Notes: a model not told the origin generated them from the letters alone. 64,000 bases of DNA from Laspinema olomoucense D3b (GCF_025370785.1 NZ_JAMXFA010000001.1:171902-235901); one strand, 5' to 3'. Positions 4,510 to 48,171 are shown, counted from the first letter of the stretch. Numbers and translations: made by a program.

Positions 4510-5028
4510 TTAAGTCATGCGTAACTTGCATCTGTGTGAAAAGGATGCATTAAATAGTAGAAAAAAAGTAGCCATTGATACGATTAGCCCAAGAGGGCGA
4601 CCACAAGGGGACATCTCTCCCCCCTCTTGCCTTCTGTGATGTCCTAACACATAAATTTCAGCCTCGGGAATATGACTCACCCGATGCAGTTGAGCAATCA
4701 GCGCTAACTCTAAAAATTCCGTCAAATCACTGATTAAATTATTTAAACAGCAGGATTTAAAAGGGGTTGGGGATGAATTTTGCTTTAAACTGGTTAACTA
4801 GAGTAAATCAGAAATTAGATGACTCAAGCGACGTCCCTGCCTCTCCACGGTTTGCAGCAGCAGGAGAATGTCCCACTGATTTGAGGGGGGTAATCGTAAA
4901 ATTATCTCTACCGTCGCTAACAGACTTGCTAGAGGCGATCGCAATTCATAGGCAGCATTTGCCGTAAACTTTTGCTGTTGCGGATACGACTGGGAAATTG
5001 GCTGCATATAGCAGTCCTGATACTCCAT
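4510..5028 (-). pseudogene. Decayed histidine kinase remnant (HisKA fragment with in-frame stop)
   Basis: ORF 4798-5028 encodes a phospho-acceptor-like H-box variant, AAYELRSPLASLLATVEIIL...RLSHLISDLL (Tyr in place of the usual His). It ends at a TAG at 4798-4800. ORF 4510-4725 continues in the same frame but lacks a recognisable HATPase domain. Both the N-terminal sensor and the C-terminal catalytic domain are absent. The 5' end abuts MITE copy A at 5021-5143. Confidence 0.5.
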
Positions 5029-5143
5029 TCGGTTGTTAAAGGTCTATAAAAACCCATACCCTCAAGGGTGGAGCCTCACAGGACCGAGCCTCTCCTGCGC
5101 GGGCTAAAAGCGAAAACCGACTTTTACCAACCGGATTTGGTAT
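5021..5143. repeat. MITE-like dispersed repeat, copy A
   Basis: Left end atactccattcggtt, core gtctataaaaaccc...ccctcaagggtgg, hairpin ctgcgcgggct, right end aaccggatttggtat. It shares all modules with the copies at 7765, 11273, 44806 and 46230. Confidence 0.75.
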
Positions 5144-5251
5144 GACGTGCCGTTGTGGAAGACGTCGGCGGCCCCTTTCTCGTTGGCGGCCCAGAAGGGG
5201 AGAGGGGACTGGGATGAGGTACAAATCATTTAGGATTGCTATCTATCTCCC

Positions 5252-6067
5252 CTATCTCGCTTGGCGGTCTCGATTGGCGGTCTCGATTGGCGGTCTCGAT
5301 TGGCGGTCTCGATTGGCGGTCTCCCCTATCTCGATTGGCGGTCTCCCCCCCGATTCCAAGGCGTCCAAGGCTTCTAATCCCATCAATTGCAATAGGGTTT
5401 CCCATTCTTCTTGATTAGATGGATCATCAAGAGGGAGTTGACTCAGGTCGGCTAAGCTGCTGAAGGCATCCATCCATAGTCCCGCTTCCGCATAAATTTG
5501 AGGATGACTGCTGGGGAAGGCAGTTTGTAACTGAGTTGCCAGATTACCGGAGAGGGGGAGGCGCTGAACTGTTCCACTCAGGGTTAAATTCTGGGACACA
5601 AAGGCCGGATTACAAATAATTGAAAATGACCAGCTATAGATTTTTTGAATTTCCAGGGGTTCTAGGTTGATAAAAAGGGGGAGTTGTAGGCGAATTATCC
5701 CGGGATTTCCGCTTAGGGCAAATCGCAGCTTATAAAGGACGAGATCACTCTCATTTGATAAGATAAATTCAGCATTTTGAGCCGAAGTTTCGGGGAGGTA
5801 AAAGAAGAAAGAGGGAAGTCCTTTTAGGGTTGAAATCTGATTCTGATTGGGGGGTAGTAATGCCCTGAATGAGGTATCCGTTGCGATCGCCTCGGGGTTA
5901 CAGCTATTCATTTCTGCCTCTGGGGGACTTTGAGTAACCCTTTGGGGGAAAATCCATCCACGCGATTCGGTGGCGATCGCTGGGGTGGCCAATTGAGAAG
6001 CCCCTAAGATTAAAAACGACACCAGATAAGTCACCCCGATCATTCTGCAAAGCGGTGTCTGCAACAT
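5252..6067 (-). CDS. Secreted hypothetical protein (possibly DUF928-like cyanobacterial family)
   Basis: 271 aa ORF with an N-terminal signal peptide (VSFLILGASQLATPAIA). It is Pro/Gln-rich with a conserved-looking IICNP segment. The C-terminal tail is encoded by the tandem 13-mer, so the true stop may lie earlier. Confidence 0.5.
   Translation of the reverse strand: MLQTPLCRMIGVTYLVSFLILGASQLATPAIATESRGWIFPQRVTQSPPEAEMNSCNPEAIATDTSFRALLPPNQNQISTLKGLPSFFFYLPETSAQNAEFILSNESDLVLYKLRFALSGNPGIIRLQLPLFINLEPLEIQKIYSWSFSIICNPAFVSQNLTLSGTVQRLPLSGNLATQLQTAFPSSHPQIYAEAGLWMDAFSSLADLSQLPLDDPSNQEEWETLLQLMGLEALDALESGGRPPIEIGETANRDRQSRPPIETANRDRQAR
5257..5352. repeat. Tandem 13-nt repeat (TTGGCGGTCTCGA)n, about 6 units
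   Basis: The tract reads ttggcggtctcgattggcggtctcgattggcggtctcgattggcggtctcgattggcggtctcccctatctcgattggcggtctccc. It overlaps the 3' end of the minus-strand ORF 5252-6067. Because 3 x 13 = 39 nt, it yields a 13-aa periodic C-terminal tail (ETANRDRQSRPPI). Confidence 0.9.
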
Positions 6068-6469
6068 AGTGGTTATGTAAGATAAAGCGGTACTACAACG
6101 GTAAATTGATTTATTTTAAGCCTTCAGTCGGATGACATGGAGCTGCCCCCCGGCTCAGACTATAACGGATTCTCGTTAAATTGGGAGTCCTCCTCTATAG
6201 TGTAGCAACATATAAGGTGGGGAGATTGAACCGTTTTTCGCTGAACCTTGTCAAAACTATAAGGAGTCCGTCATCCTTGTCGAAAGAGTAGATTTTTATC
6301 CATCTCCTTAATCCTTAAAATAGTGGAATTAACTTCTGCTTAAACAATTACGGTCTGCTAAGCGCTCATTATGCTGTCTCAATCTCCCCCCTCCATTCGC
6401 CAAGGGTCCCAGCAGCAGCGGGATAGTCCAATTCCCCATGACCCCCGATGCCGATGGCTGGGGAACTCC

Positions 6470-7726: not shown

Positions 7727-7764
7727 TTGGGGCTTTGGTTTCCTCATAATGCTGGGGAATTGAG

Positions 7765-7917
7765 GCGGAATTTGGTTTTGAAAGTCTATAAAAACCCGCA
7801 AAAAACCCGCAGGCTGTTCGCGTAGCGTTCCGTAAGGAAAGCCCGGAGGCTACACAGACGAAGCCCGCCTACGCGGGCTAAGAAAGAAAACTGACTTTTT
7901 GCAACGGGATTGGGTAT
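7765..7917. repeat. MITE-like dispersed repeat, copy B (with internal insertion)
   Basis: Left end ggcggaatttggtttt, core gtctataaaaacccgcaaaaaacccgcagg, hairpin aagcccgcctacgcgggct, right end aacgggattgggtat. Confidence 0.7.
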
Positions 7918-8030
7918 GAGGCGATCGCCTGGAATTTGCTGCCATCAGGATTCATCCTACTTTTAAATCATCAATTGTCCGTGAATCCCTCCCCCACGGG
8001 CTAAATGTCCACCGTTAGAACCCGCAATAT

Positions 8031-11000
8031 ATGAATGGATTCAGCATCAGTGCAACCGCAATTCGCCAGCATATTGGCACCTTAGCCCTTACCACCACGG
8101 CGATCGTCCTGGGGGTATTCTTTCTCACTTCGATTCAAGTGGATCTGCTTCCCGCCATTACCTATCCTCGGATTGGACTGCGCCTGGATGCGCCGGGAAT
8201 CTCCCCTGAAGTGGCGATCGAAGAAATTACTAAACCCTTAGAAGAGGCCCTGAGTACCACCGAAGGGGTGGTGCAGGTTTATTCCCAAACCCGGGAAGGT
8301 CGAGTCAGTGTCGATTTATTCTTTGAGCCCGGAGGAAATGTGGATCTCGCCTTGAATGAGGCCACTGCTGCCTTTAACCGCGCCCAAGGACGTCTCCCGG
8401 AGGTGGTGGACTCCCCCCGATTATTTAAGGTAGACCCCTCTCAGTCTCCGGTTTATGAGTTTGCGTTACAGTCGGCGTCCCTACAAGATGTGGATTTGCG
8501 GGTCTTTGCCGATGAGGAGTTAGCCCGAGAGTTAGGGGTGGTGCCCGGTGTGGCAGCGGTGGATGTTTCTGGGGGAATCACCGAAGAGATTCAGGTTCGC
8601 ATTGATCCAGTGCGATTGCAATCATTCGGACTGGGGTTAACGCAGGTTTTAAATGAGTTGCGCGATCGCAATATTGATGTAGCTGGGGGTCGGTTATCCG
8701 GCGGGAGTGAAGAGCCCCTGACTCGCGCCCGGGGCCGATTTGAATCCGCTGAGGAAATTGCTAATCTTTCGTTTGAAATTCCCAATCAAGGCCGAGTCTA
8801 TCTCCGGGACTTTGCCGATATCATCGATGGCACTGCCGAACGGCTGGTGCGGGTCACCCTGAATGGCGAACCCGCCGTCAAAGTGAGCATTCAAAAACAA
8901 CCGGATGCCAATACGATTACGGCAGTAGAGGGGGTCAAACAACGACTAGAACAGTTGCGTCAGTCCGGGTTAATTCCCCCAGATATGGAAATTTATCCGA
9001 CTTTAGATGAGTCGGTTTTTATTAGAAATTCCATTTCTAATGTGGTGGTCTCCGGGTTGACTGGGGCGGGACTCGCGGCCCTGGCAGTGTTCCTGTTTTT
9101 AGGTTCGATTCGCCAAACGGTGATTATTGTCTTATCCATTCCCTTGGCCACCCTAAGTTCCATTGCCTTAATGCAAATGTTTGGTCTCTCCCTGAATGTG
9201 TTTAGTTTAGGGGGATTGGCCCTGGGGGTCGGGATTGTGGTAGACAATGCGATCGTCATGTTGGAAACCATTGCCGAAGGGGTGGGGATGACACCGGGGA
9301 AAAGTCAGCAAAATCAACGGCTGACCTCTTCCAAGGCGATCGCCCAAGCGGAAGCCAGCAGTCGGTCTATCGAGTCTGCCTTACTCGCCTCAACCACCAC
9401 TAACCTCGTCTCCGTCTTACCCTTCTTACTCATTGGTGGCCTATTTTCGCTCTTATTTAGCGAACTCATTTTAACCATTAGTTTTGCTGTTGCCTCCTCC
9501 TTACTGGTTGCCTTAACCGTGGTTCCGATGTTGACCTCGCGCTTATTAGCCATTCCCTATACCAGCGGATTAAGTCAATTTTTTCTACTCCGGGCATTTA
9601 ATGCCGGATTTAATGGATTTACTCGCCTTTATCAATGGATTTTAAAATGGGTTTTACGGCTGCGAGTGATAGTGATTGCCCTGGCTATCATCGTTTTAGG
9701 AAGCGGGAGTTTTTGGTTAGCTGGAGGACTTCCCCAGGAAATTTTACCGGAGATTAATACGGGCCAAGCTCGCTTATTTGCCCAGTTCCCTCCGAATACG
9801 ACATTGGCTCAAAACCTGAAAATTATGGCAAAGGTTGATGAGATTTTACTGGCTCAACCGGAAACTCTAAATGCCTTTACCACCGCTGGGGGCTTTCTTT
9901 TTGGTACCAGTGTCTCCCCGAATCCTCTGCGGGGTTCCAGTACCGTTACCTTGAAACCGGGTACAGATATTGACGCTTTTATTACCCGCGCCAGTGCGGA
10001 ATTTGAAAAGCTGAATCTGGTGGATGCTCGCCTGCGAATGAGTCCCGAAAGTGTCCGGGGGATTATTCTGACAAATTCCCCAGTTCGTGCTGAGTTGGAT
10101 GTTACGTTACAAGGTACGGATGTTCAGGCTTTGGAACAAGCGGGGAAAGAAGTTTTAGCGGCATTAGATGAACAAGCTACTTTAGCAAGTTTTCGTCCCG
10201 ATGCGGACTCTCAACAAACTGAATTACAAATTCGTCCAGATTGGGTGCGGGCCTCCGAATATGGGTTGTCGGTAAATGACATTGGGGCAGCGATTCAAAC
10301 GGCAATTCAAGGGGCAGTTCCCACTCAACTCCAACGGGGCGATCGCCTGGTTGATATTCGCGTTACCTTACCCGATAATATGGTCCAACGGGTCTCTCAG
10401 TTAGAACAATTACCCCTGTTAGTGGGCAATAATCGGTCAATTCGCTTGCAGGATATCGCCACGGTAGAACGCGGACAGGCACCGGGAGAAATTCAACGGA
10501 TTAATCAGCGTCAGGTGTTTATTATTGGCGGTTCTTTGACCGAAGGTGCAACCCTAGGACAAGCAAATGCCGAGATTGCTGAAGTCCTAGCAGGCATCGA
10601 TTTTCCTCCAGGGGTGAGTGTGGTTCCTTCTTCTTCGGCGCAAACCAATCAAGAGTTACAAGACTCTCTCAAGCTGTTAGGAGGATTAGCCTCCTTTCTA
10701 GTCTTTGTGGTGATGGCGGTCCAGTACAATTCCCTCATTGATCCATTAGTTATTATGCTAACGGTTCCCTTAGCATTAGCGGGGGGAATTGTCGGACTTT
10801 ATGTCACCGAAACCCCGGTGGGGGCAACGGTATTAGTCGGGGCGATTCTGTTAGTGGGGATTGTGGTAAATAATGCCATTCTTATGGTAGAGTTTGCCAA
10901 CCAAATATATAAAGAAGAAGGAATTAACCGACGGCAAGCTATCTTGAAAGCAGCCCCCCAACGCTTGCGACCGATTTTGATGACAACCATCACCACGGTG

Positions 11001-11273
11001 TTGGGAATGTTGCCTCTGGCGTTAGGCATGGGGGAAGGGGGGGAATTTTTACAACCCTTGGGGGTGGTGGTGTTCTCTGGGTTATCCTTAGCGACGGTTC
11101 TAACGTTGTTTATTATTCCCTGTTTTTATACCTTGCTTCATGACATCTTCGGGGGCCGACGTCCGCCTTTAAGTCCGGATCAACTGGAAACGGTGTTCCA
11201 GGAGTCTCCCGATTTGGACAATGTGCCATCTCCTTCTGGGGTGGACTGGCGCGGTCCTGAACCGGGGGTTTAA
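8031..11273 (+). CDS. RND efflux transporter permease (AcrB/AcrD/AcrF family)
   Basis: 1080 aa protein with 12 TM segments and two large periplasmic loops. It has the conserved AcrB-family motifs GxxVDxAIVMxE and VxNAILMVEF, and sits directly downstream of the adaptor gene. Confidence 0.9.
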   Translation: MNGFSISATAIRQHIGTLALTTTAIVLGVFFLTSIQVDLLPAITYPRIGLRLDAPGISPEVAIEEITKPLEEALSTTEGVVQVYSQTREGRVSVDLFFEPGGNVDLALNEATAAFNRAQGRLPEVVDSPRLFKVDPSQSPVYEFALQSASLQDVDLRVFADEELARELGVVPGVAAVDVSGGITEEIQVRIDPVRLQSFGLGLTQVLNELRDRNIDVAGGRLSGGSEEPLTRARGRFESAEEIANLSFEIPNQGRVYLRDFADIIDGTAERLVRVTLNGEPAVKVSIQKQPDANTITAVEGVKQRLEQLRQSGLIPPDMEIYPTLDESVFIRNSISNVVVSGLTGAGLAALAVFLFLGSIRQTVIIVLSIPLATLSSIALMQMFGLSLNVFSLGGLALGVGIVVDNAIVMLETIAEGVGMTPGKSQQNQRLTSSKAIAQAEASSRSIESALLASTTTNLVSVLPFLLIGGLFSLLFSELILTISFAVASSLLVALTVVPMLTSRLLAIPYTSGLSQFFLLRAFNAGFNGFTRLYQWILKWVLRLRVIVIALAIIVLGSGSFWLAGGLPQEILPEINTGQARLFAQFPPNTTLAQNLKIMAKVDEILLAQPETLNAFTTAGGFLFGTSVSPNPLRGSSTVTLKPGTDIDAFITRASAEFEKLNLVDARLRMSPESVRGIILTNSPVRAELDVTLQGTDVQALEQAGKEVLAALDEQATLASFRPDADSQQTELQIRPDWVRASEYGLSVNDIGAAIQTAIQGAVPTQLQRGDRLVDIRVTLPDNMVQRVSQLEQLPLLVGNNRSIRLQDIATVERGQAPGEIQRINQRQVFIIGGSLTEGATLGQANAEIAEVLAGIDFPPGVSVVPSSSAQTNQELQDSLKLLGGLASFLVFVVMAVQYNSLIDPLVIMLTVPLALAGGIVGLYVTETPVGATVLVGAILLVGIVVNNAILMVEFANQIYKEEGINRRQAILKAAPQRLRPILMTTITTVLGMLPLALGMGEGGEFLQPLGVVVFSGLSLATVLTLFIIPCFYTLLHDIFGGRRPPLSPDQLETVFQESPDLDNVPSPSGVDWRGPEPGV

Positions 11274-11351
11274 TACCAAATCCGGTACTGATAGTAAAAA
11301 CCCCCAGGCTCAAGCCTGGGGCTATACGGACAAAGCCTGCCTACGCAGGCT
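11273..11351. repeat. MITE-like dispersed repeat, partial copy C (left end, core and hairpin)
   Basis: The sequence ataccaaatccggtactgatagtaaaaacccccaggctcaagcctggggctatacggacaaagcctgcctacgcaggct has no recognisable right-hand terminal repeat. It begins at the stop of the RND gene. Confidence 0.6.
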
Positions 11352-11431
11352 AAAACCCCCTTTCCTCGTGACTGGGTTCTACCCAGTCACGCTCTCCATG
11401 AGGCTCTGCCTCCAGTCTCTCACAGAGGCGC

Positions 11432-12142
11432 TTAAGCCAAGTCAAACAATAGCACTTCTGCTTCTTCAGACCCTACTAGGGTAAGGGTTTCTGGCGCGGA
11501 ACAGGCGACCCCATCGCCAGTTTTCAAGGGGAGGTCATTGAGGGTCAGCGTACCCCGGGCGACTTGTACCCAAGCATGACGGTTGGGGGGAATGTCATAC
11601 ACCACGCGATCGCCTTTGTGCAGGATGGTGGCATACAGGTTCAAATCCTGATGAATGGTGACGGAACCCTCCCGACCATCTGAGGACCCGATTAACCGCA
11701 ATTGGCCGCGTTTTTCTGCCTCGGAATAGTGTTTTTGTTCATAGGAGGGGACTCGTCCTTGTTGGCCCGGTAACATCCAAATTTGCAGCAGATGCACGGA
11801 TTCGGTTCGGGAATGATTAAACTCACTATGTGCGACTCCGGTTCCCGCACTCATCCGTTGAACTTCCCCGGGAAGAATAACGGAAGTGTTTCCCATGCTA
11901 TCTTTATGTTCTAACGCCCCTTCTAGTATATAGGTGACGATTTCCATATCCCGGTGAGAATGGGTGGGAAAGCCACCTCCGCCACTCACCCAGTCCTGGT
12001 TAATCACCCGCAGCGCACGAAATCCCATGTACTGAGGGTCGTAATAGTTGGCAAAGGAAAAGCTATAGTTGGTTTTGAGCCAGCCATAATTGCCTTGTCC
12101 CCGTTCTTCTGCTTTGCGTAGGGTTAACATGGGTTCCTCCAA
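11432..12142 (-). CDS. Pirin family protein (cupin)
   Basis: 236 aa protein with the characteristic pirin N-terminal motifs (GFPTHSHRDMEIVTYILEG...HKDSMGN) and bicupin architecture. Confidence 0.85.
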   Translation of the reverse strand: MEEPMLTLRKAEERGQGNYGWLKTNYSFSFANYYDPQYMGFRALRVINQDWVSGGGGFPTHSHRDMEIVTYILEGALEHKDSMGNTSVILPGEVQRMSAGTGVAHSEFNHSRTESVHLLQIWMLPGQQGRVPSYEQKHYSEAEKRGQLRLIGSSDGREGSVTIHQDLNLYATILHKGDRVVYDIPPNRHAWVQVARGTLTLNDLPLKTGDGVACSAPETLTLVGSEEAEVLLFDLA

Positions 12143-12208
12143 TGCGATCGCGACAGGTTTTATGGAATTTAGATGCTTTAGTTATTACTTACTTTAGAAT
12201 GGGTAAAG

Positions 12209-16364: not shown

Positions 16365-16452
16365 GGCGGTTTAGGGGTGAGGATTGGGGATTTACCAGAT
16401 TTTTATGCTAAAATAAGTACAGGGATAAGATGAAATCCACCCCTGAACTATT

Positions 16453-33032: not shown

Positions 33033-33101
33033 TGAAATAAAATGCAGTGCTAATCCCTTAGAATTACGCTGACAATTGCCGTTTGGGAGTTGGTTTTGAT
33101 A

Positions 33102-34328
33102 TCAACTGGGGTAGGGGGAAGAGATGGCGATCGCCTTGCGGTACTGCCAACGGTGCAGCATTTGGCGATAGACTTCCTGGACTATACTGGGTGCGCTATA
33201 GGGTTGAACGGTTCGTACACAAGCTTCTGAAGAATACAGGTCCGGATTCGCCAGGACTCGCCGCAAGGCATCGGCGATCGCCTCTGCTGTTCTTTCTTTG
33301 CAGACTACCCCACTATCGGGTGAGAGCAGTTTAGGAGTTTCACCACAGTCTGTTGTCACCACAGGAGTGCCGCAGGCAAGGGCTTCGAGAACGGTGACGG
33401 GTAAGCCTTCATAAACACTACTGAGCAAAAAGGCACTGGCTGCGCGATACAGTTGAGCCAATCGGTCCGAGTTGACAGCACCGAGGAGGGTAACGCGATC
33501 GCCCAAGTTCAACGCTTGGATCTCACGTCGCACCTGTTCCTCTAACTCTCCGGCTCCAGCAATTAGCAAATGGACTTGGGGATCAGCCAAGGCGGCGATC
33601 GCCTGAATCCCTAATACCGGGTCTTTTTGCGGATGCAATCGTCCCGCAAATAATAGGAATCGCACCGTTTCGGGTAACCCCAGCTCTTGAGCCAGTTCCC
33701 GGCGTTTGATTTCCCGTTCTTCCCGCTTATCGGGATAGAAACTCTCGGGATCAAATCCATTTTTTAAGAAAGCCACCCTTGGCGCTAATTCCGGATAGGC
33801 TTCCCGATAATGCTGCGCGGACTCGCTATTACAGGAATACACCTGCTCGAATTGGCTAATCAGTAACTTTTCTAACGCAAAATATACTTTCGGAAACTGT
33901 TGCCATAGAATCGCTTTCCCCCCCAAGTTGCGATCCATTTGCTTGCGAATATCGTTGTGAATAAAAAGGGTTTTATCTCCCGCCCAATTTAGACTGGCTA
34001 AAGTGGGTTCTATTCTATGAAAGTGCATAAAATCTGAGGCAAAATTATGCCGCATTAAGGAGGCTCCGTAGGCAATAGTCGTCGGAATCAACTTCCGGAC
34101 ATTATCCTCGCCTACTGCAATCACCGGCATGAATTGAATCGCTTTTCCGGCATATTCCGTCCATTTCCATACCCCCAAGGCAGATCCCGGCGCTCCGGTC
34201 CCTACTACCCTTACCACAAATTCATCGGGAGCATATTTAATAAAAGAACGAATAACCGTCTGAATACCACCAATACTGCTATCCCACGGATTAAATTGAT
34301 AAAAAATTGTCAGAACTGGCTTGCTCAT
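33102..34328 (-). CDS. Glycosyltransferase family 1 (GT4-like)
   Basis: GT-B fold motifs (LSSVYEGLPVTVLEALACGTPVVTTDCGE). It is the first gene of the same-strand EPS cluster. Confidence 0.8.
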   Translation of the reverse strand: MSKPVLTIFYQFNPWDSSIGGIQTVIRSFIKYAPDEFVVRVVGTGAPGSALGVWKWTEYAGKAIQFMPVIAVGEDNVRKLIPTTIAYGASLMRHNFASDFMHFHRIEPTLASLNWAGDKTLFIHNDIRKQMDRNLGGKAILWQQFPKVYFALEKLLISQFEQVYSCNSESAQHYREAYPELAPRVAFLKNGFDPESFYPDKREEREIKRRELAQELGLPETVRFLLFAGRLHPQKDPVLGIQAIAALADPQVHLLIAGAGELEEQVRREIQALNLGDRVTLLGAVNSDRLAQLYRAASAFLLSSVYEGLPVTVLEALACGTPVVTTDCGETPKLLSPDSGVVCKERTAEAIADALRRVLANPDLYSSEACVRTVQPYSAPSIVQEVYRQMLHRWQYRKAIAISSPYPS

Positions 34329-36475
34329 GCCTTAGTCGAAACTCCCTCCTTTTTGGAATGCTGTAACTCATAGGATGATTACCCTCAGTTACCTGAAGAT
34401 CTCGGTTCACTGTTTCCCTAGATCAATCTAGGGGTTGACAAGCATCATCCCTAAATGGTCAATCCCTTGAGGCATTCCCAGAAAATTCTGGAGAATCATC
34501 GCCTCAGGATGTACCACCCTAAGTGTTTATGACAGATTCCCTTTAACAGGAGAAAGCCCTTATTTCCCCCTCTCTCCTCGGTCCCTACGCGAGGAAAAAA
34601 AATTTGTTCAACTATTAAGCTTGATGAACACTAATCGCCGTTGTCTTTTCTGAGAACACAAGGAGCGTCATTTTTGGATTCAACAGCATTCACTGTAATA
34701 ACACCTAAAGATAACTCGCCCCATATTTGTCACGTACTTTACAACCCTATCCGACTTACCAAGGAAACTTTATCAACAGTTCTTAAATTTTTGATAAAGT
34801 TTGCTCGTCTTGACATCTCTGGATGAATTCCGACACTTAAAGTGTAAACCTGAATTCTTTCCCTACCCTAGGACAGCTCCAATATCAATCTGACATTCAG
34901 AAACTGTACGCCCTAAAGTTGTTGAAACTCAAGCATTTTTGCCAAACTCACTTTCTAGGCCATCCGCCCCAGGCCAAGGCCCTTGCTCGGAAACCCTGTG
35001 GTAGGCAACCTACCTGGGAGTTACTCTTCCCTTATCTATTTTACGATCACCGGAGTTAGGCCCTTTATCCCTTCACTCTTCTGGGTCAAGCACTGCCCTT
35101 TAAAATTGTGCTTAATCCCTGCTGCTTCCCCGATATGGGGCGTTAGCTTTTATAAGAATCTGCGATAACTTTAACAGCAAGTAAAGAAAAAGTAAAGGGG
35201 GTAAAACACGCTTTGCTTCTCAGAGCAGTTATATTGGGTGAAAACCTTTACCCCCAAGGGTTTCAGCTCTCACCCTTATGAAAAAACCTACATCAATTTT
35301 CCATCCCAGGAGATGTGGGAGCCACTGGAACGCTATCCCGGTTGATGAGCGGTCTGATTTTCCTCCTAGAGTATATCATTTTGATACAAAAAGCAGATAT
35401 ACCGACCAGCCCTGTATTAGTTCTACACAGGTTGAAAGGCTAAAAATGTGGGTACAAATGGTAGGCCACCCTCCCTATATCGGGTTAGGATAGGCTGTTG
35501 ATGGGTCGGGTCCGGAATTTAGGATCAAGTTGACGGTTGGGGAGGCGGGGAAATGGGAACCAAGCATCGGAGGAGCGATCGCCTATAGTCATTGAAAAAA
35601 GCCGGGGATGCAGGGGAATTGCTTTGGTTATTAATTTCTGGATTGTTTTATTGACATCGGTGCGATCGCCTACATATTACAAGCCTTTGTAAGCATAATA
35701 CACCTCTTGCAAAAAAAAGGATTGATCTCCCTTTCCCCCCCTTATTAAGGGAGGCTTTAAAGAATTTTGCAAGAGGTCGATTGATACCCCGATGCTAAAC
35801 TTTGAGGCTGGAGGCGATAATATTTCCCGGGAGAAATCGTGGTAAAATATGGATCAAACATCTTTAAGAGTTCCTGTTCGATATCATCTACTGGGGAAGA
35901 GATAGGCCCGGAAGAGGAGCAAGGGAACAATTGAAAGACAGATAATGGGCGTAGTCTGATCAGTGGGTAAAAGTGGAGTCCGACTCTCCCAGGGAGGCGA
36001 TCGCTTCTCGGGTAATTAAGGGATTGGAACCAGTGGCCCAAAAATTAGTAAGTAACAAATCTGCACAAACATTTGCCGAAAAAAGGAAGAGAACACTCGG
36101 ATATTTGCTTGCTCATTTTGGGTTAAAATAACTTTGTCATACGGGTATCCCGGACTTTCAAGTCCTGTCAAGCCTCTCAAGAAATAGAAAAGGGTACGGG
36201 CTCTCGGTCAGGACCGATGGCCCCCCAAGGCGGAGGGAGTCAGTTTGAGGGGTGTACTGACTTGCATCCTATCTTGCTCCCGGGTCTAGGTTACTAACAC
36301 GGCTCATTGTGAGCCAGATTTATGCCCTCGTTAAGGGGGATTCGGGGTTGCTTGGGGAAAGGAGGAACGGAGGTCAGAGGATGCCTGCTTCTATATTTTG
36401 GTAGAGGTGCTTTGGGGGTTCCTGGGACTACGATCGAAACTGCAGAAAAATATAAATACACAGGAATAAGGAGTT

Positions 36476-38946: not shown

Positions 38947-39244
38947 GATTAATGACCTTTATTATAAATAGGGGTGGAAGAGAGGATGGCGATCGGGATT
39001 TTGATAATTTTTAAACCAGGCGATCGCCCGGTTAGCTTATGTTGTCTTGAACCTGACACCATGATAATTCCCCTTTCTTCCGGGGAAAGGGGAATTTCAT
39101 CTCGCTTGGGGTTAAGCCTTCCGGGTGGGATAAGATTCAACGGCGATCGCAGCGATCGCCTTGAATCCCGACTCCCCCCAGTTAATGAGCCCGCGCTTTT
39201 CTGGCTTCGTCCGTAGAACCCGACCCTTCAGGGTGCCGATTTTC

Positions 39245-40225
39245 TTATATCATCGGCGATTTCGGACTACTCAGCTCAGTTTGCGGGTAGGAAGACCACT
39301 GATTCGGCCCTGGAGGAGTAGCCGATTTCACCTCCGCAGAACGCTTCATACTCAGCTCTTGTTCCTTTTTGAATACCTGTTCTTCCGTCAGATTCGTCCC
39401 TTCACTCGTCTGATTGCGGGTCATCCCTTCCGTCTTGATGACATAATCGAGAGGATCCTCTACATACACCCAATTTTCCCCAGCAGGCCAAGTCCCTTGA
39501 CCTTCATTCCAAGGTCCGCGAGCGCTGGTTCCATTGGACATATTAAAGTACAAATGACTGTAGCGCGGGTCAGCTTGTAGCACTCCCGGCGGGAAATTCG
39601 GTTCGATGGTTTCCAGGGCAGCGGCAAACATTTTGTAGTGAGAAACTTCCCGCGTCATTAAGAAGCGCAGAGTGTCTTTTACATCCGGATCATCGGTAAA
39701 TTGCAGCAAATATTCATACACAATTTTCGCACGAGACTCGGCGGCGAGATCTGAGCGCAAATCAACGGTCAAATCCCCATTGGCATTGACGTAGGTTCCT
39801 GACCAAGGCACACCTTGACTATTAGTGACCGTTGGACCACCGCCAGATACTGCTAATAGTTGCGGTCCCGTCATCGCAATTTGATGGATGAGTTCTTCCT
39901 GGCCCGCTTTTTTTCCACTCAGAAACTGCATAATCTCGCTGTTTTCTGCGGCGTTCTTGAGATCCCCATTGATGCCATCTAACAACATGGTAATCAATGC
40001 ACCAACGATTTCCAAATGGCTAAATTCTTCCGTAGCCACATCCATCAACAGGTCGTATTTTTCCGGGTAGGCTTGCCGCGCTCCAAACGCCTGGACAAAA
40101 TACTGCATGGCTGCCTTCAGTTCTCCGTTAGGACCGCCAAACTGTTCTAGCAGTAAGGTTGCAAAGCGGGGATCGGGCTTGGACACACGGGCATTAAATT
40201 GTAATTCTTTGACGTGATAAAACAT
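39245..40225 (-). CDS. Manganese catalase (ferritin-like, non-haem catalase)
   Basis: N-terminal signature MFYHVKELQFNARVSKPDPRFATLLLEQFGGPNGELKAAMQYFVQAF...EEFSHLEIVG matches the Mn-catalase family. Confidence 0.9.
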   Translation of the reverse strand: MFYHVKELQFNARVSKPDPRFATLLLEQFGGPNGELKAAMQYFVQAFGARQAYPEKYDLLMDVATEEFSHLEIVGALITMLLDGINGDLKNAAENSEIMQFLSGKKAGQEELIHQIAMTGPQLLAVSGGGPTVTNSQGVPWSGTYVNANGDLTVDLRSDLAAESRAKIVYEYLLQFTDDPDVKDTLRFLMTREVSHYKMFAAALETIEPNFPPGVLQADPRYSHLYFNMSNGTSARGPWNEGQGTWPAGENWVYVEDPLDYVIKTEGMTRNQTSEGTNLTEEQVFKKEQELSMKRSAEVKSATPPGPNQWSSYPQTELSSPKSPMI

Positions 40226-41514
40226 TTGATTTCCTTGGGATAAAATTCTACTTCTTTAGGAGGAGGGCAATTTTTGATTGGACCTTATGATTTAATGAAA
40301 AAATAACCCGCAGGTTAAGTTTTTAGGTCAATCCTCCTCACCTAAATAACCAGGTTAGCGACTGAGCTATCCTTCAGTTTCTACCCCAGGGATGAACCTG
40401 ATTCATAAATTGTCTACTGGATCTACTCCAATCCAAATCTTTTGCCGTTAACTCACCATTATCTAATTAAGCCCATGAAGTTAGTTTCGACTCAAGGCTT
40501 AGGCATCCCATCGGTATCCCCAGATACGGGCGAGGAAGGGAATTCCCCTTCTCTTTCGGTTTGATGCTCTAAAAAAGAGGAATTGCGCAACAGAATTCCA
40601 TCTACAGAGGGAGGAGATTAATTGAAAATTAGAGTATCCTAAGCCTGATGAAAAGGTTACAGAATCTTAATTGAGATTAAGGTGTAGATAACCTTTGAAT
40701 TAACCTGTCTGAGAGATTGTTGGAAGGGGTCAACTCAGAGTAAACAGCAGGGTGAATGATTTCGGTGTAATGGCTCTTTAAACCAAAATAAAGCCTGGTT
40801 TCTCTTTTGCCTGGGTCCGGGGGTTCATCCGCAAAAGCTCCACCTTTGAGGGGGATGGGTTTTAGGAAAACTCAGGGAGGATAAAAGGGAACCCGCACCG
40901 CGAGAGGGGCCTGAAGGGGTGGAAAATTCCTGGGGAGGCGGCTACTCTTGGGCCCTCTAAGCCAAATGACTCCGGCCCCGAGCCTAGTCAGCAGTGGATC
41001 CTAGACTCTGGCTTTCCGGGCGATCGCAAATCTGTTTCAATCCGGCAAAGCCACCCCAAACATGAGAAAATATAATCCTAGGTCTATAGAATAACCACAA
41101 CCCGCTTGAGTTGGCCTGTCCCTGAGTTCTCTAGGGGTTCTAATCCCGAGTCCAAATAAACCGGACAAATAGGGCAACAACAGGATTCAGTCCTTTTGAA
41201 AACACCGGAGGCGATCGCCCTTCCGGCTTTCCCAGGATTGCTGCCAAATCGTCTGATGGCAGGTACAATCGGTACAGTATCCATTCCCAGGAGCCAGACA
41301 CTCCCATCGGAGAGTCTTTTTTGTAGTCATTGTTAATCCGGAGCAACAAAGAAGCGTGTTTAATTCAGAAGCCGACCCCAAATCAGCATTCCTCAAAGGA
41401 TTTGCCCTCAAGGGTCAGCCCTGGAAAATAGGTCTCCTGTTGCCGGTTTTAACAATCTCAAATTCCCGACTCTGCGCTATTACTTATCCTCATTCCCTAT
41501 CTTAAATATCTTTC

Positions 41515-42198: not shown

Positions 42199-42372
42199 GC
42201 CATCTTCAGCGACAATATCCAAGGTTAGGGGCATTCTAAACCGCAGGGAAGGGGATTAAGGCGATCGCGCCTGAAGCACTCACCGCCATACCATCAAACG
42301 TGGCGAATCGACAGTCTAAAATACTGCCCCTAACCGAGTCTAGATTAGCCGATAACCTAACAAAAAATACCC

Positions 42373-44166: not shown

Positions 44167-44310
44167 ATAGGCGGAAGAGGAAGAGACGCCTGAAGGCGTC
44201 TCTTCCTCTTCTGGCAACCCATTCCCTAAGATAACCTTACGATAGAAGCCCAACCCGGCGATCGCATGATAAGGTTTGGCCACAACTTCCCATATTTTGA
44301 GGAAAAAACA

Positions 44311-44796
44311 ATGGCAATCCAACCCCCACCCCCACCCTCCATCACCCCGCGTCAGATGAACCTGTTACGAGTTGTAACTGCAATGGCATGGGCAGATGGA
44401 GAACTCGGGGCAGAAGAAGTCGAGATCATGCTCGATCGCTTTAGTCGCTTATTTTCCGTCAGTCCCCAACAACAAGACAAACTCAAAGAAGAACTGCGGG
44501 ACTATATGATGCAAAACATCCCGCTGGAAGAATTAATCCCTAAACTCGCCACCCAACCCGAACGGGAACTGGTTCTGCAAATCGGCTATGAAGTCATCGC
44601 CTCCAGTTCCCGAACCCCCGATGAGCCTAATATTAATGCCGAAGAAGCTCAAGCCTACAAAAAACTCGTTTCCCTCCTGAATTTGCCCGAGGATGTAGTC
44701 CCGCGCATCGAAGCCGAAGCTGAAAAAAGTTTACAAAATGAGGAAGGAATCATCGAGAAACTTGCATCCCACCTTCACGCCTTTTTAAATCAATAA
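44311..44796 (+). CDS. TerB-like (tellurite-resistance TerB / DjlA N-terminal-like) domain protein
   Basis: The TerB-like helical signature is AMAWADGELGAEEVEIMLDRF. The likely start is MAIQPPP at 44311. Confidence 0.55.
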   Translation: MAIQPPPPPSITPRQMNLLRVVTAMAWADGELGAEEVEIMLDRFSRLFSVSPQQQDKLKEELRDYMMQNIPLEELIPKLATQPERELVLQIGYEVIASSSRTPDEPNINAEEAQAYKKLVSLLNLPEDVVPRIEAEAEKSLQNEEGIIEKLASHLHAFLNQ

Positions 44797-44805
44797 TACC
44801 AAATC

Positions 44806-44917
44806 CGGTTGTTAAAAGTCGATTTTCTCTTCAGCCCGCGCAGGCGGGCTTCGTCTGTGTAGACCCACCATGCATGGGTGCGGGTTTTTATGGATCTATT
44901 ACAACCGGATTCCGTAT
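44806..44917. repeat. MITE-like dispersed repeat, copy D (core inverted relative to A/B/E)
   Basis: Left end ataccaaatccggtt, hairpin cagcccgcgcaggcgggcttcgtctgtgtagaccc, core gggtgcgggtttttatgga, right end aaccggattccgtat. It lies between convergent genes. Confidence 0.75.
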
Positions 44918-44957
44918 AATATTCGGTTAGGCAATCATTCATTGCCTGATTCCCAAA

Positions 44958-44994
44958 ATAAAAAAAGGGTACGGCATTGCCCTACCCTTTTCGA
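44958..44994. terminator. Bidirectional rho-independent terminator between convergent genes
   Basis: The sequence aaaaaaaaaGGGTAcGGCAttGCCcTACCCttttcg is a GC-rich hairpin flanked by an A-run upstream and a T-run downstream. It lies between the plus-strand TerB-like gene and the minus-strand nadA. Confidence 0.65.
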
Positions 44995-45121
44995 TTGAAA
45001 CTAGCAAAAACCAACACCCTCCAAAGAGGGCTATACGGATGACCTAACGACTTGCTGTCGTTAGGTGTTCATCTAAACAATCGCCGCCTACCTGAGCTTG
45101 AAACAGCGGGATTTACTATGA

Positions 45122-46096
45122 TTATGCGCTCATTTCTAGCATTCGTTGCATCGGGCGCAATGCTGCCTTGCGCGTTTCCTCCGGTAAGGTAATCTCCGGG
45201 GCGCGATTTTTCATAGCCAAATATAATTTTTCTAAGGTATTCAGCCTCATGTGAGGGCATTCATTACAAGCACAACTATTCAGGGGTGGCGCGGGAATAA
45301 ACTGTTTATCTCCCGCCTGTTTTTGCATTTGATGAATGATTCCCGGTTCCGTAGCCACGATAAACACCTGGCTGGCACTATTTTGAGCATAGTTTAACAG
45401 CGCACTGGTTGACCCAATATAATTAGCATGGCGCAACACCGTCGGTTCACATTCGGGATGAGCAATGATTTCAGCTTCAGGATGTTGAATTTTGAGCTGA
45501 ACAATTTTCTTTTCTGAAAAAGTTTCATGCACCATGCAACTGCCTTGCCACAACACCATATCCCGGCCCGTTTGCTCCATCACATACCGACCTAAATTGC
45601 GATCGGGGGCAAAAATAATCGGCTGATTTTCGGGGATTTGCCGCACCAGTTTGACTGCATTAGAACTGGTGCAGATAATGTCGCTCATGGCTTTAATGGC
45701 CGCCGAGCAGTTAATGTAAGAGATGACAATATGATTCGGATGAGCGGCTTTAAATTCCCCAAAGGCATCGGGAGGACAACTATCGGCCAGGGAACAACCG
45801 GCATCCAAGTCTGGAAGCAAAACCAGTTTATTCGGATTCAGGATTTTAGCCGTTTCTGCCATGAAGTGAACTCCGGCAAAGACGATGACATCGGCGTTGG
45901 TATTGGCAGCTTTTCGGGCCAGTTCGAGAGAGTCACCGATATAGTCAGCAATATCCTGAATGTCGGGTTCTTGATAGTAGTGGGCGAGGAGCACTGCATT
46001 GAGTTCCTGTTTCAAGGATTCAATGGCTGCAAATAAATCGTCTGGAATCGCGGAGGTTTGGGCAGAATTGCGCGGTGATAAAGTCGCAGTAAACAC
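45122..46096 (-). CDS. nadA: Quinolinate synthase NadA
   Basis: 324 aa protein with NadA family motifs ([28 protein letters not shown], three conserved Cys for the 4Fe-4S cluster). Confidence 0.9.
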
Positions 46097-46229
46097 AATT
46101 TTCAGGGGGTGAACTTGCAGTTCTTTAGGGTGTTATTCCTAATTATAGTATTTTTTACCAAAAAGAGGAGATCTGGGGGTGGCGATCGCCCAGAGGCGAC
46201 TTTCCCGAACCCAGGGAGGATGGAGGATA

Positions 46230-46351
46230 ATACGGAATTCGGTTCTCAAAGTCTATAAAAACCCGCACCCTCAAGGGTGGGTCTACACAGACAAAGCCCG
46301 CCTGCGCGGGCTCAAGAGTATTGTTAGGGCTGTCACAACCGGATGCAGTAT
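46230..46351. repeat. MITE-like dispersed repeat, copy E
   Basis: Left end atacggaattcggtt, core gtctataaaaacccgcaccctcaagggtgggtctacacagac, hairpin aaagcccgcctgcgcgggct, right end aaccggatgcagtat. Confidence 0.75.
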
Positions 46352-46445
46352 CGGACCCGAACCTTCCCCTCAAAGGAAAGGGAGAATCAGGAAATTTTTG
46401 AGGGCTGGAGAAGACCCGGGATGGCTCCAGGACTTAGAGGGCCGC

Positions 46446-47240
46446 CTAATCTTCCAGGGAAATCTTTTCCATCCCCAGTTCCCGACTGCCGGTTCGGGCC
46501 CAACGTGCAGTCGCTTCGTTGCCCTTAAATTCATAATCCAACACGGCGAGGTTAGAGCTAGTCCCCCAGCCAACAACGAGCCAATCATCAACGCGCAAAC
46601 CGATTCCGCGATAGGTTTGGTCATCGACGTTCCAGGTGACTTGATAGGTATCGCGGGATTGGGTAATGGTTAATTCTCCACTGAAGGCAGAATCCTCTTC
46701 TCCAGGGTCGGTACTGCTAATTTGATAGGACCCGGCTAACTCTCCCGATCGCCCTCCTGTAGCTAGTTCTGTGCCGACTTCACCCTCGGCGCTACTGAGA
46801 GTCCATTTCCCATCTAAAGTACCATCGTCCTGAATTCTATACAGGGCCACGCCATAAATCTCCTCATCCAGTCCGGCCCCTACCAGCAACCGCCCCTCTT
46901 CATAGAACCCCAACCCGGAATAATTGCCTTCGGAGGTTTCCCAAGAGACTTGATAGAGGTTGTCCGTATTCCCGATCGCGGTAATATCGAGGCTGCCGGT
47001 GTAAGCTTGTCCCCTGGGAGTTTTACCCTCCGTAATCCCCCAGACTCCTTCGAGGCGATCGGGGGCGGACTGTCGCCTCCAGAAAAATGCGGTTTGATGG
47101 GATTCTACTTCCTGAATAACAGGCTGTGCGATCGCCCCGATGGTGGGGGATGCAGCCCCGGCCAACACCATCAGAACACTCAAGAAATAACGGGCTGTAT
47201 TGCCATAGGTCACGATCAGGTTTCTCCTCAGTTGAGTCAT
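46446..47240 (-). CDS. Secreted hypothetical protein with two tandem ~100 aa repeat modules
   Basis: The likely start at 47240 (MTQLRR) gives a signal peptide (FLSVLMVLAGAASPTIGAIAQ). There are two internal homologous modules (YQVSWETSEGNYSGLGFYEEGRLLVG and YQVTWNVDDQTYRGIGLRVDDWLVVGWG). Confidence 0.5.
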   Translation of the reverse strand: MTQLRRNLIVTYGNTARYFLSVLMVLAGAASPTIGAIAQPVIQEVESHQTAFFWRRQSAPDRLEGVWGITEGKTPRGQAYTGSLDITAIGNTDNLYQVSWETSEGNYSGLGFYEEGRLLVGAGLDEEIYGVALYRIQDDGTLDGKWTLSSAEGEVGTELATGGRSGELAGSYQISSTDPGEEDSAFSGELTITQSRDTYQVTWNVDDQTYRGIGLRVDDWLVVGWGTSSNLAVLDYEFKGNEATARWARTGSRELGMEKISLED

Positions 47241-47658
47241 GTAAAGCCTTGAGATTAGCCGAAACAGGGGCTTGCCGTGCAACTCCCCTGCCCCGATGAA
47301 GGGAGATGACCCGGTTGTAGTCAAGAGGGTTTCGTGGGGGGCGGAGTCTCTGAAAAAATAACCGGGGCAGGTAAAGGCTCTCCCAAACCTCCCTAATTCC
47401 CACCCTGTAAAGGTTTTGGCTCATGGGGCCGGGGTTAACCTATACCTTAAGAGGTATTTTTGGAAAAAAAGTCCAAAAACCCTTGACATCTTCTTTTCAA
47501 ACGGTAACAATGAATACAGAAAGTAAATCGTTCATCCCTCACAACAAGCCAGTTCATCTCTAAACGGCATGAACCGGGCAAGGGACGGAAGTAGGGAGTC
47601 ACTCCCGAAGGAACGCGCCTCATCCTACAAACAAGACTCTATTTAGGAGGCGAAAAAC

Positions 47659-47982
47659 ATGAAACTTTCATATCGTGGCACCACTTACGAATATACTCCC
47701 GCAGAAGTTGAGGTTACCGAAGGCGAACTCGCCGGTAAATATCGCGGGTTAGATTGGAAATTCTGCAATCAGAAGAAAGCGCCGGTCCAACAAGCGACCG
47801 TGGAACTGAAGTATCGGGGAGTTGCGTTGACCACTGGTGAACCGCAGTCCGCAAAAACCTCGGCACCGGAACAAGCTCGTCGTCTGATGATGGATCGGCA
47901 AGTTCAAGGGGCAAAACGCCAGCGGTCCATGTTGAGCCGTTTGACTGCTGAACTCAAGAGCATTCCTGTTCTCGCCCATTAA
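47659..47982 (+). CDS. DUF4278 domain protein (cyanobacterial small protein)
   Basis: Has the characteristic MKLSYRGTTYEY...KYRG start of DUF4278. Confidence 0.7.
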   Translation: MKLSYRGTTYEYTPAEVEVTEGELAGKYRGLDWKFCNQKKAPVQQATVELKYRGVALTTGEPQSAKTSAPEQARRLMMDRQVQGAKRQRSMLSRLTAELKSIPVLAH

Positions 47983-48156
47983 GGGAAAGTGATTCCATAC
48001 CTAGCCTTGTCCGCTAGAGGCTAGGTACAAATTCTCAACAACTTAACTAATTTCAATATCTCCCGTCTGGGGGGTATTTTTTTTAGGGGCTTTTACAGGG
48101 CGAAGGATGAAAACTAGAGCATGGGTACAGTAACGGGAAGACCCTAAAAATGAGTA

Positions 48157-48171
48157 ATACCAAATCCGGTT
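48157..48171. repeat. Solo terminal-repeat remnant of the MITE-like family
   Basis: An exact ataccaaatccggtt occurs here without the adjacent core. Confidence 0.4.

Follow-up and report, generated by a model that had tools for sequence, protein, structure and literature searches.

The window analysed here, a stretch of 64,000 nucleotides of Laspinema olomoucense D3b, a filamentous cyanobacterium, contains a short repeat at several places, and the question is whether this repeat is a transposable element, a hairpin sequence that moves by itself, a CRISPR repeat or a regulatory element of the host. It is a bounded non-coding unit of about 120 bp which starts with TAC, stops with GTA and has terminal inverted repeats of 24 nt each. 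One end is TACGGAATCCGGTTGTCAAAGGTC and the opposite end, read inward, is TACCAAATCCGGTTGTTAAAAGTC. The ends are thus asymmetric, with TACGGAATCC on one side and TACCAAATCC on the other; the TACGG-type end is named here IRR-like and the TACCAAATCC-type end IRL-like. An earlier reading of the window (hereafter the first-pass annotation) had given ATAC...GTAT as termini: the ends are real, but one base of the target duplication had been included on each side. Between the ends, the cargo consists of two GC-rich hairpins linked by the spacer (C)TAYACRGACRA. Most copies measure 116-124 bp, variants reach 140-173 bp, and no ORF of 100 aa or more was found inside the copies. In an alignment of 58 copies the mean column identity is 82%, and the helix formed by the end repeats has standard pairs in 87% of the cells. 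An inverted repeat (I9) was detected inside copy D.

The six loci listed by the first-pass annotation all exist, and the matches to the end, to hairpin 2 and to the core are far above expectation in the window: 10 matches vs. 2.25 expected for the 15-mer end ATACCAAATCCGGTT (with up to 3 mismatches; none of 100 shuffles reaches 10), 5 vs. 0.01 for the hairpin-2 19-mer and 4 vs. 0.03 for the core 20-mer. That list was not complete, since relics G and H, recovered by nhmmer, had been missed. The window total is eight loci: copies A to E, which are bounded or truncated, the solo end F and the two relics, which have no ends (Table 1). The copy bounds had been placed at the correct loci and are refined here by the duplications; the start at 44806 formerly given for copy D cut 10 nt of the end repeat. 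In other genomes, a scan with the 21-mer end gave at least 113 loci, most of them in genomes of Laspinema, Oscillatoria and Phormidium. The copies are found in both orientations and are intergenic throughout, as had been noticed before: none lies within an ORF.

Table 1. Loci of the repeat in the window, with their flanks and neighbouring genes.
Feature	Position	Strand	Description	Flanks or duplication	Neighbouring genes	nhmmer E
Copy A	5021..5142	+	122 bp, full length	tga at 5018-5020 and 5143-5145	between NMT1-like gene and DUF928 gene	3e-31
Copy B	7764..7916	+	153 bp, long-loop subfamily	tga at 7761-7763 and 7917-7919	between membrane-fusion gene and RND pump gene, both + strand	1e-22
Copy C	11274 to about 11355	+	truncated, without right end	TAA at 11271-11273, left only	left TAA is the stop codon of RND pump ORF 8031-11273	8e-17
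Relic G	39184..39251	-	two-hairpin cargo without terminal repeats		begins at stop codon of Mn-catalase-like ORF 39245-40225 (-)	3e-8
Relic H	40790..40870	-	strongly decayed cargo and part of right arm			1e-5
Copy D	44797..44916	-	120 bp, full length, reversed orientation	taa at 44794-44796 and 44917-44919	taa at 44794-44796 is the stop codon of TerB-like ORF 44266-44796	2e-34
Copy E	46231..46350	+	120 bp, full length, right subterminal region decayed	taa / tcg	between nadA and gene upstream of nadA	2e-27
F	48158..48171	+	solo IRL-type end TACCAAATCCGGTT	taa on left		

The copies differ in the state of their ends and hairpins. Copy A is 84% identical to the family consensus; its left TACGG-type end is decayed to TACTCC and its right end is of the TACCAAATCC type. 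Copy B has GG, by mutation, in place of the TA at its left terminus, and its hairpin-1 loop holds a 24-nt insert, GTTCGCGTAGCGTTCCGTAAGGAA, plus a short local duplication. The internal insertion previously assigned to this copy is real; it is, however, a subfamily trait, the 24-nt long loop being present in 7 further copies in relatives. Copy C is indeed the copy without right end, and both of its hairpins have compensatory variants (CCCCAGGC..GCCTGGGG and AGCCTGCC..GCAGGCT). Copy E is 78.5% identical to the consensus and is missing from the shorter homologous spacer of Oscillatoria sp. S11.Bin022 (L115). The gene beside relic G was identified via the annotation of L115 and L118.

Target duplication had been set beforehand as a check on mobility, the TNA duplications themselves having gone unnoticed. 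Identical 3-bp flanks border 78 of the 98 full copies (window plus relatives), for a chance rate of 1/64, and all 78 are TNA: TAA (21), TTA (20), TGA (19) and TCA (18). In the window, copies A, B and D have perfect duplications. The only clean empty site found is that of copy D in L115, whose NadA is 96% identical to the NadA of the window. The filled site of the window is AACCGAATA-TTA-[copy D]-TTA-TTGATTT and the empty site is AACCGGATA-TTA-TTGATTC, i.e., it reads AACCGGATATTATTGATTC. The duplication is of 3 bp because this empty site requires that TTA be counted once, which excludes a 2-bp TA duplication; the TA model predicts ...TTATATTA..., absent from the empty site. The copy D site is occupied in L001, L119 and L120, as it is in the window, but vacant in L115, thus the repeat is not merely conserved by synteny. 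Insertion takes place at a TNA trinucleotide, of which one copy is found on each side of the element. Two stop codons, TAA and TGA, match this target, so that some copies lie exactly on a stop codon and regenerate it. The element is a MITE, as the first-pass annotation had proposed for a bounded, dispersed, non-coding unit with terminal inverted repeats: it is short and non-coding, it has terminal repeats and a target duplication, it is dispersed, it shows presence/absence, and its ends are common to an insertion sequence.

IS630/Tc1-mariner elements canonically duplicate TA and not TNA. A cognate transposase of the IS630 type or of the IS200/IS605 type had been envisaged; the former was found, with matching ends, and the latter is unsupported. 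TAC..AATCC ends together with TNA duplications were found on elements of about 1.16 kb whose transposase genes are intact (taa/taa in L124, tca/tca in L125, tga/tga in L127 and taa/taa in L211, which belongs to Laspinema sp. D2d). With the NCBIfam model NF033545 "IS630 family transposase", for which the cut-off is 100, the conceptual transposase reaches 195 bits, and it also matches Pfam HTH_33 and DDE_3; Laspinema proteins of this type are named "IS630 family transposase" by NCBI. In L127 and L211 the TACCAAATCC end is upstream of the transposase gene and TACGGAATCC is at the other end, i.e., the asymmetry is that of the MITE. The right end of L211 matches the TACGG-type end of the MITE at 21/24 positions, and the left end of L127 matches the other end at 20/24 positions. 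The sole unusual feature of the element is that an IS630-family clade duplicates 3 bp (TNA).

L. olomoucense itself has an annotated, intact transposase of 354 aa that belongs to the same 90% cluster. The only copy of the insertion sequence seen in this species, L210, has a diverged left end (12/24 positions match the MITE), which leaves current mobility in L. olomoucense unproven. Neither the window nor the sampled Laspinema and Oscillatoria loci, which amount to about 0.8 Mb, contain a transposase of this clade. Apart from the terminal 24 nt or so, the interior of the MITE is unrelated to the insertion sequence, and a simple deletion derivative is rejected on this basis. It must be noticed that, among full-length insertion sequences from metagenome contigs, 29/30 are bordered by TNA on each side, with the same middle base in only 13/30; this mismatch putatively comes from chimeric assembly or from recombination of multicopy elements.

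The observed structure, duplication, single empty site and matching transposon ends make it highly probable that the repeats are a MITE with TNA duplication which, coding nothing, would be moved in trans by an IS630-family transposase with the same asymmetric ends, the hairpins being a REP-like passenger sequence with interchangeable stem and loop variants. The transposase would be supplied by such insertion sequences in Laspinema, including L. olomoucense.

Four other explanations were weighed against trans-mobilisation by an IS630-family transposase. A 3-bp TNA duplication is a hallmark of PIF/Harbinger and of some IS5-family subgroups, and the repeat shares it with PIF/Harbinger-Tourist elements and IS5 subgroups, which speaks for a Tourist-like MITE of IS5 or PIF-Harbinger type. 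This origin is extremely improbable: the transposase here is IS630 (HTH_33 plus DDE_3), the ends correspond to those of IS630-family elements that have TNA duplications of their own, all autonomous elements found with such ends belong to the IS630 family, and no IS5-type element with these ends occurs among the inverted end pairs 0.3-3.5 kb apart in the 113 loci listed. The mobile unit could also be the hairpin module (a repetitive extragenic palindrome, REP or REPIN-like, moved by a REP-associated tyrosine transposase, RAYT, or one of the "very small mobile repeats" of Nostoc), the terminal repeats being a favoured landing context. GTRTAG precedes hairpin 1 on the reverse strand, as in GTAG-tagged REPs (PMC3733652), and both stem alleles of hairpin 1 are found with a short loop as well as with the 24-nt long loop. 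Moreover, different cargoes are found in the same terminal-repeat frame (L030 4188-4314 and L072 3692-3833, both with GTAG...CTAC doublets), and position 45004-45052 holds a hairpin module that has no terminal repeats, at a site which in L115 is taken up by hairpin doublets arrayed in tandem. In Anabaena variabilis, GTAG-15 dimers are nested within long palindromes (Di Nocera et al. 2013, PMC3733652). The repeat resembles cyanobacterial GTAG-tagged REPs (GC-rich stem-loops, adjacent (G/A)TAG tag, loops that are either short or long, complementary variants of the stem), and the hairpin pair inside a longer inverted repeat recalls the GTAG-15 dimers. However, the palindrome here is formed by the two ends of a transposon, which has target duplications and a partner in the IS630 family, and the commonest tag is ATAG and not GTAG (next to hairpin 1: GTATAG in the consensus and copy C, GTGTAG in copies B, D and E, GTGAGG in copy A). 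The duplications and the empty site delimit the entire 120-bp unit and not the hairpins, and ends and cargo are inherited together in most copies. A REP/REPIN is expected to have neither terminal repeats nor target duplication, and the element has both. Movement of the hairpin module is thus improbable for the repeat as a whole; it may hold for the origin of the cargo, leaving the movement of the 120-bp element unchanged.

Hairpin 2 matches the Rfam family RF01356 (CRISPR-DR28) at 22/24 consensus positions, the 24-nt consensus GGCAAaGCCCGCCUGCGCGGGCuA corresponding in essence to hairpin 2 together with the 5' flank. The scores are 31.9-32.4 bits for the window copies, below the gathering threshold of 35, and 36.4-37.3 bits for 22 copies in relatives, above it. 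In spite of this match, it is hardly conceivable that the hairpins are orphan CRISPR repeats: the copies are single, 1.4-30 kb apart and embedded in a MITE with terminal repeats and duplications, no repeat-spacer array exists in the window, and no cas gene was found among 10 proteins scanned beside copies. It is more likely that RF01356 describes this cyanobacterial repeat; unlike the family as named, the repeat has here no array and no spacers and is part of a dispersed MITE. The label "previously unannotated" of the first-pass annotation stands insofar as no MITE of this sequence was found in the accessible literature, but hairpin 2 was already in Rfam. The last explanation is that selection maintains the repeat at gene ends as a conserved regulatory element of the host (terminator or RNA-stability hairpin), a role that had also been suggested before. 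When the element is read from its TACCAAATCC end, TTTTTAT comes after hairpin 1, which then resembles an intrinsic terminator; a pattern scan gives copies D and E as terminator-like, the folding z-scores are -2.9 to -5.3, and the stems are preserved through compensatory changes. An incoming gene meets copies A, C, D and E in the terminating orientation, and copy B, located within the pump operon, has the non-terminating one. Nevertheless, among 74 main-family copies the gene 3' ends abut the terminator-facing side in 23 cases vs. 27 for the other side, i.e., the orientation relative to neighbour genes is random and a selected terminator role has no family-wide support. The empty site of L115, the nadA-terB gap of just 50 bp in L117 and the TNA duplications, which point to insertion events, also make selective maintenance very unlikely, and effects on neighbour genes are treated as incidental.

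As a MITE linked to IS630-family elements, the repeat can be compared with RUP of Streptococcus pneumoniae, which is linked to IS630 (IS630-Spn1), of about 100-150 bp, intergenic, multicopy and non-coding, with a stable fold. The two have all these traits in common, as well as terminal repeats shared with an IS630-family insertion sequence. They differ by the duplication (3-bp TNA vs. 2-bp TA for RUP) and by unrelated sequences; moreover, the interior of the Laspinema element is not derived from the parent and carries REP-like hairpins. RUP is listed as a MITE (PMC3184786). Among cyanobacteria, Nezha, MaeMITEa-h of Microcystis and the Anabaena MITEs are alike in phylum, size class, terminal repeats, direct repeats and empty/filled sites (PMC3184786, PMC2779907), the Microcystis MITEs being likened by description. 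The direct repeat of Nezha is of 10 bp, CATTATCTAC in the cited copy (PMC6042816). Nezha is linked to ISNpu3 and differs from the present element, with its 3 bp, in transposition chemistry and target.

A broader proposal, tentative and on balance doubtful, is that a large IS630 subclade (common in cyanobacteria, and in soil metagenomes at 34-45% protein identity) integrates at TNA and duplicates these 3 bp where the family canonically duplicates TA, and that its conserved end pair (TACCAAATCC, and TACGGAATCC in some members) would serve as a reusable frame for unrelated cargoes, one of them the REP-like hairpin recorded in Rfam as a CRISPR repeat. If this is true, and unrecorded in ISfinder and the literature, it would mean that the stagger of target cleavage has changed within the IS630/Tc1-mariner superfamily and has converged on the PIF/Harbinger target.

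The first-pass annotation had also read the density of copies as recent or ongoing mobilisation. Identity to the consensus is 78-88% for the copies in the window, and D, E and F all occur in L001, L119 and L120, with zero substitutions vs. L001 (98.6% identical overall); on these comparisons, recent activity at the window loci is not supported. The solo end F is old, since a decayed and tandemly duplicated homologue occupies the same site in L115.

Across the six loci of the first-pass annotation, reading of the sequence shows shared ends, an A-rich core and two GC hairpins. Within the window there are 10 matches to the 15-nt end at up to 3 mismatches (2.25 expected), 5 to the hairpin-2 motif (0.01 expected) and 4 to the core motif (0.03 expected). 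The five aligned copies have the same layout, i.e., end repeat, TATAAAAACCC, hairpin 1, spacer CTAYACRGACRA, hairpin 2 (AGCCCGCCTGCGCGGGCT), A-rich stretch and second end repeat. They are recovered by nhmmer at about E=1e-17 to 2e-34 with a profile of 58 related copies, which adds two end-less relics (G and H) absent from the first list. A putative seventh copy at 35231-35273 (60% match) is unsupported by nhmmer. The repeats have no Rfam match at gathering thresholds in the whole window, where the sole match is a glutamine riboswitch. Copy D has no BLASTN match among 72,556 plasmids. It must be noted that relic G contains, in its decayed TATAA(A) core, the stop codon of a Mn-catalase-like ORF (39245-39251); its insertion may have supplied the end of this gene.

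A scan with the 21-nt end (one genome per species) gives at least 113 loci, almost all in Laspinema, Oscillatoria sp. HE19RPO, Oscillatoria sp. S11.Bin022, Phormidium pseudopriestleyi and related metagenome-assembled genomes. Among the matches listed, inverted end pairs are mostly 119-123 bp apart and the flanks follow the regular pattern tNa-TAC...GTA-tNa; thus the ATAC...GTAT termini proposed earlier take in one duplicated base per side. Identical 3-bp flanks are found in 78 of the 98 full copies listed; all 78 are TNA, the four possible middle bases being equally common. In the window the duplication is perfect at A, B and D. At copy E one flank is decayed, and at C and F the left TAA remains.

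Coordinates, ends and flanks of the repeats, sites and related elements (window positions unless a locus of another genome, L, is named)
Feature	Position (strand)	Sequence, or left end upstream of transposase gene	Right end read inward	Flanks
Copy A	5021-5142 (+)
Copy B	7764-7916 (+)
Copy C	11274-11355 (+)
Copy D	44797-44916 (-)
Copy E	46231-46350 (+)
F, solo end	48158-48171 (+)
G, relic without ends	39184-39251 (-)
H, relic without ends	40790-40870 (-)
Convergent nadA/terB junction, window		AACCGAATA-TTA-(copy D)-TTA-TTGATTT		TTA/TTA
nadA/terB junction, L115 (Oscillatoria sp. S11.Bin022; NadA 96% identical)		AACCGGATA-TTA-TTGATTC
MITE copy in L034	5694-5817
Unrelated 163-bp segment	31476-31646			tga/tca
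End-less two-hairpin module	45004-45052	CCTAACGAC..GTCGTTAGG - TCATCCGTATAG - CCCTC..GAGGG - T-run
Tandem hairpin units, L115	~10990-11480
Insertion sequence L124 (metagenome contig, ENA ERZ21270259)		TACTAAATCC	TACTAAATCC	taa/taa
Insertion sequence L125 (Coleofasciculus)		TACTAAATCC	TACCAAATCC	tca/tca
Insertion sequence L127 (metagenome)		TACCAAATCC	TACGGAATCC	tga/tga
Insertion sequence L211 (Laspinema sp. D2d)		TACCAAATCCGAGGTTCAAACATC	TACGGAATCCGGGATTCAAAGGTC	taa/taa
Nested ~55-nt repeat in L123, another very small inserted repeat	3585-3640 and 3895-3950 (approximate)	AGCGATGCAGCGCGGTCTTGGGGGTTT.CCCACTCGCTATTGCATCAAGACA
Glutamine riboswitch (RF01739, 52.9 bits)	47527-47619
Tandem array, 13-bp units	5255-5348	TCTCGATTGGCGG
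Tandem array, 9-bp units	2941-3018	GGGAAGATG
Region of ~2 kb	34328-36391

The nadA/terB junction of L115 is a textbook empty site, and a junction-spanning BLAST match confirms that it lacks copy D. The sequence TTATATTA, predicted by a 2-bp TA duplication, is not seen there. In another related locus (L117) this junction is merely 50 bp long. Conversely, downstream of its counterpart of site F, L115 has a full copy flanked by tta on both sides; the window has none there. In two further loci (L034 and L092) a MITE copy lies between 'gtttga' and 'tcagtccgg', where the window has the 163-bp segment; this segment has no obvious terminal repeats, its flanks are not a direct repeat, and it could be a replacement, another type of insert or the mark of a recombination hotspot. 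The copy D site in L115 is the only clean case of the automated empty-site search, the rest being swamped by flanking repeats. The earlier suggestion of recent activity is not borne out at these loci: copies D, E and F are all present in three related loci (L001, L119 and L120) with zero substitutions vs. L001, and identity to the consensus is 78-88% for the window copies, at the old end of the family range (78-98%). The NadA of the window and that of Laspinema olomoucense are 100% identical, and the sister assembly GCA_025370815.1 has 98.6% identity over 15 kb.

Parentage in IS5/PIF was initially suspected because of the TNA duplication, and was dropped when elements of the IS630 family proved to share both the ends and the duplication. 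A partnerless end at the contig edge of L096 runs into an ORF start (MPKKAHLV...), the relatives of which lead to a decayed Moorena element (L123) with HTH_33 and DDE_3 between TACCAAGTCC... and ...GGATTTAGTA. Its reconstructed protein scores 195 bits against NCBIfam NF033545 'IS630 family transposase' (cut-off 100). Relatives with an intact transposase gene (356 aa) give 1362 matches, and in long contigs these elements measure ~1.16 kb. The left/right asymmetry of the MITE ends is common to the L127 and L211 elements: the L211 right end matches the TACGG-type end of the MITE at 21 of 24 positions, and the L127 left end matches the other one at 20 of 24. L. olomoucense itself has an annotated member of the same 90% protein cluster (354 aa), and in the element of this member (L210) the ORF is intact and the left end diverged. 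Further in than ~24 nt, MITE and insertion sequence are unrelated. Small elements with subterminal sequence of the insertion sequence exist (L038, L067 and L077), as do elements with the same end frame and quite different cargo (L030, L072 and the 117-bp family of S07.Bin090). The decayed Moorena copy is itself interrupted twice by one nested repeat of ~55 nt.

In the 113 listed loci no parent element is found, since inverted end pairs 0.3-3.5 kb apart enclose only ordinary genes or two separate MITEs; an all-against-all ORF comparison of these loci gives no multicopy transposase. In the sampled loci, tblastn with four clade transposases gives fragments only (L096 and L121). Full-length elements of the clade (L124, L125, L127, L211 and metagenome L130-L208) have TAC/TAT...GTA ends. 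TNA lies on both sides of 29 of the 30 from metagenome contigs, a set that takes in soil-metagenome relatives at 34-45% protein identity (e.g., L157, L186, L194 and L195); thus the 3-bp TNA target seems a clade-wide property of these IS630-family elements. The middle base agrees in just 13 of the 30, a shortfall that would come from chimeric assembly or from recombination of multicopy elements.

As judged from sequence, the whole is very probably explained by a non-coding MITE inserted at TNA sites and mobilised in trans by an IS630-family transposase. The earlier reading of the family as a MITE holds in every respect that sequence can test. A 2-bp TA duplication is a classical feature of IS630/Tc1-mariner elements. 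The partner transposon belongs to the IS630 family, but this duplication, the one classical feature tested, is not that of the MITE. The 3-bp duplication also sets the MITE apart from Nezha, whose direct repeat is 10 bp long (PMC6042816). Many MITEs are already well known from cyanobacteria (PMC2779907, PMC3184786), thus the element is of a kind already known; in itself it is a selfish repeat of the ordinary sort. What may surprise a transposon specialist is the duplication of TNA by an IS630 clade; the novelty of this is uncertain, and the literature searched gave nothing relevant on IS630 with a TNA or 3-bp duplication.

A role as transcription terminator, raised as a possibility in the first-pass annotation, is not supported. 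In the direction from the TACCAAATCC end, hairpin 1 and the TTTTTAT after it resemble an intrinsic terminator, and the whole unit folds stably. The orientation happens to be compatible with termination in the window, where copy A faces DUF928, C a pirin-like gene, D terB and E the gene upstream of nadA; copy B, within the pump operon, has the opposite orientation. The bias expected of a selected terminator is absent across the family (23 vs. 27 among the matches listed). Insertion into stop codons (copies C and D in the window) concerns 6 of the 98 copies listed vs. 3.1% of nearby TNA sites; this enrichment is not significant and is too weak to claim a preference for stop codons as target. Given the unbiased orientation and the lack of significant stop-codon enrichment, effects on transcripts are taken as possible side-effects of the MITE, not as the reason for its existence.

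In the 58-copy alignment, standard pairs make up 93.5% of hairpin 1 and 96.3% of hairpin 2 (pair counts). Two adjacent pairs of hairpin 1 switch together from CG to GC in 13-15 copies, and one pair of hairpin 2 switches from CG to UA in 6 copies, with 5 U-G intermediates. The stems are thus maintained; the switches are too few to distinguish the DNA from the RNA level. The insert of copy B is a long-loop variant of hairpin 1 (24 nt), found in 8 copies and on both stem alleles; in other copies it is the loop of hairpin 2 that carries inserts, of 25-45 nt. Read on the reverse strand, hairpin 2' is followed by TYGTCYGTRTAG, hairpin 1' and a T-run, an arrangement that resembles GTAG-tagged cyanobacterial REPs with alternative loops; in Anabaena variabilis REP dimers are nested in long palindromes (PMC3733652 for both). 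An end-less two-hairpin module lies just downstream of nadA in the window. At the homologous site L115 has about seven tandem units of ~78 bp, i.e., GTAG/CTAC-tagged hairpin doublets, which a CRISPR finder could mistake for an array.

Over the 24 consensus positions of Rfam CRISPR-DR28 (RF01356), hairpin 2 and its 5' flank agree at 22. The window copies score 31.9-32.4 bits, below the 35-bit threshold, and 22 dispersed copies in relatives (L008, L052, L003, L075, L063 and others) score 36.4-37.3 bits, above the gathering threshold. The CRISPR label misdescribes these copies because they are single and embedded in a MITE; RF01356 probably describes this cyanobacterial repeat, not a true CRISPR repeat. 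An explicit MITE model would prevent this mis-annotation. Also of practical relevance, Laspinema and Oscillatoria genomes assembled from short reads are broken up by the 120-bp elements, and copies sit on or beside stop codons. With 78 perfect duplications, one empty site and parents with intact transposase genes, this IS630 clade is a clean, well-sampled case of TNA and not TA, thus the target-site stagger of its transposase is directly testable. One transposon end pair with interchangeable REP-like hairpin cargo bears on the kinship of cyanobacterial REPs, very small repeats and MITEs.

The window is rich in GCGATCGC. The ~2-kb region has ORFs of 46-94 aa only (none ≥100 aa) and no Rfam match. 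The riboswitch lies upstream of a DUF4278 ORF (47659-47982) and is conserved in L115. Two short tandem arrays are perfect: the DUF928 ORF carries that of 13-bp units (5.3 copies) at its 3' end, ~110 bp away from copy A, and the spacer between ORFs 2097-2933 and 3045-4343 carries that of 9-bp units (6.7 copies).
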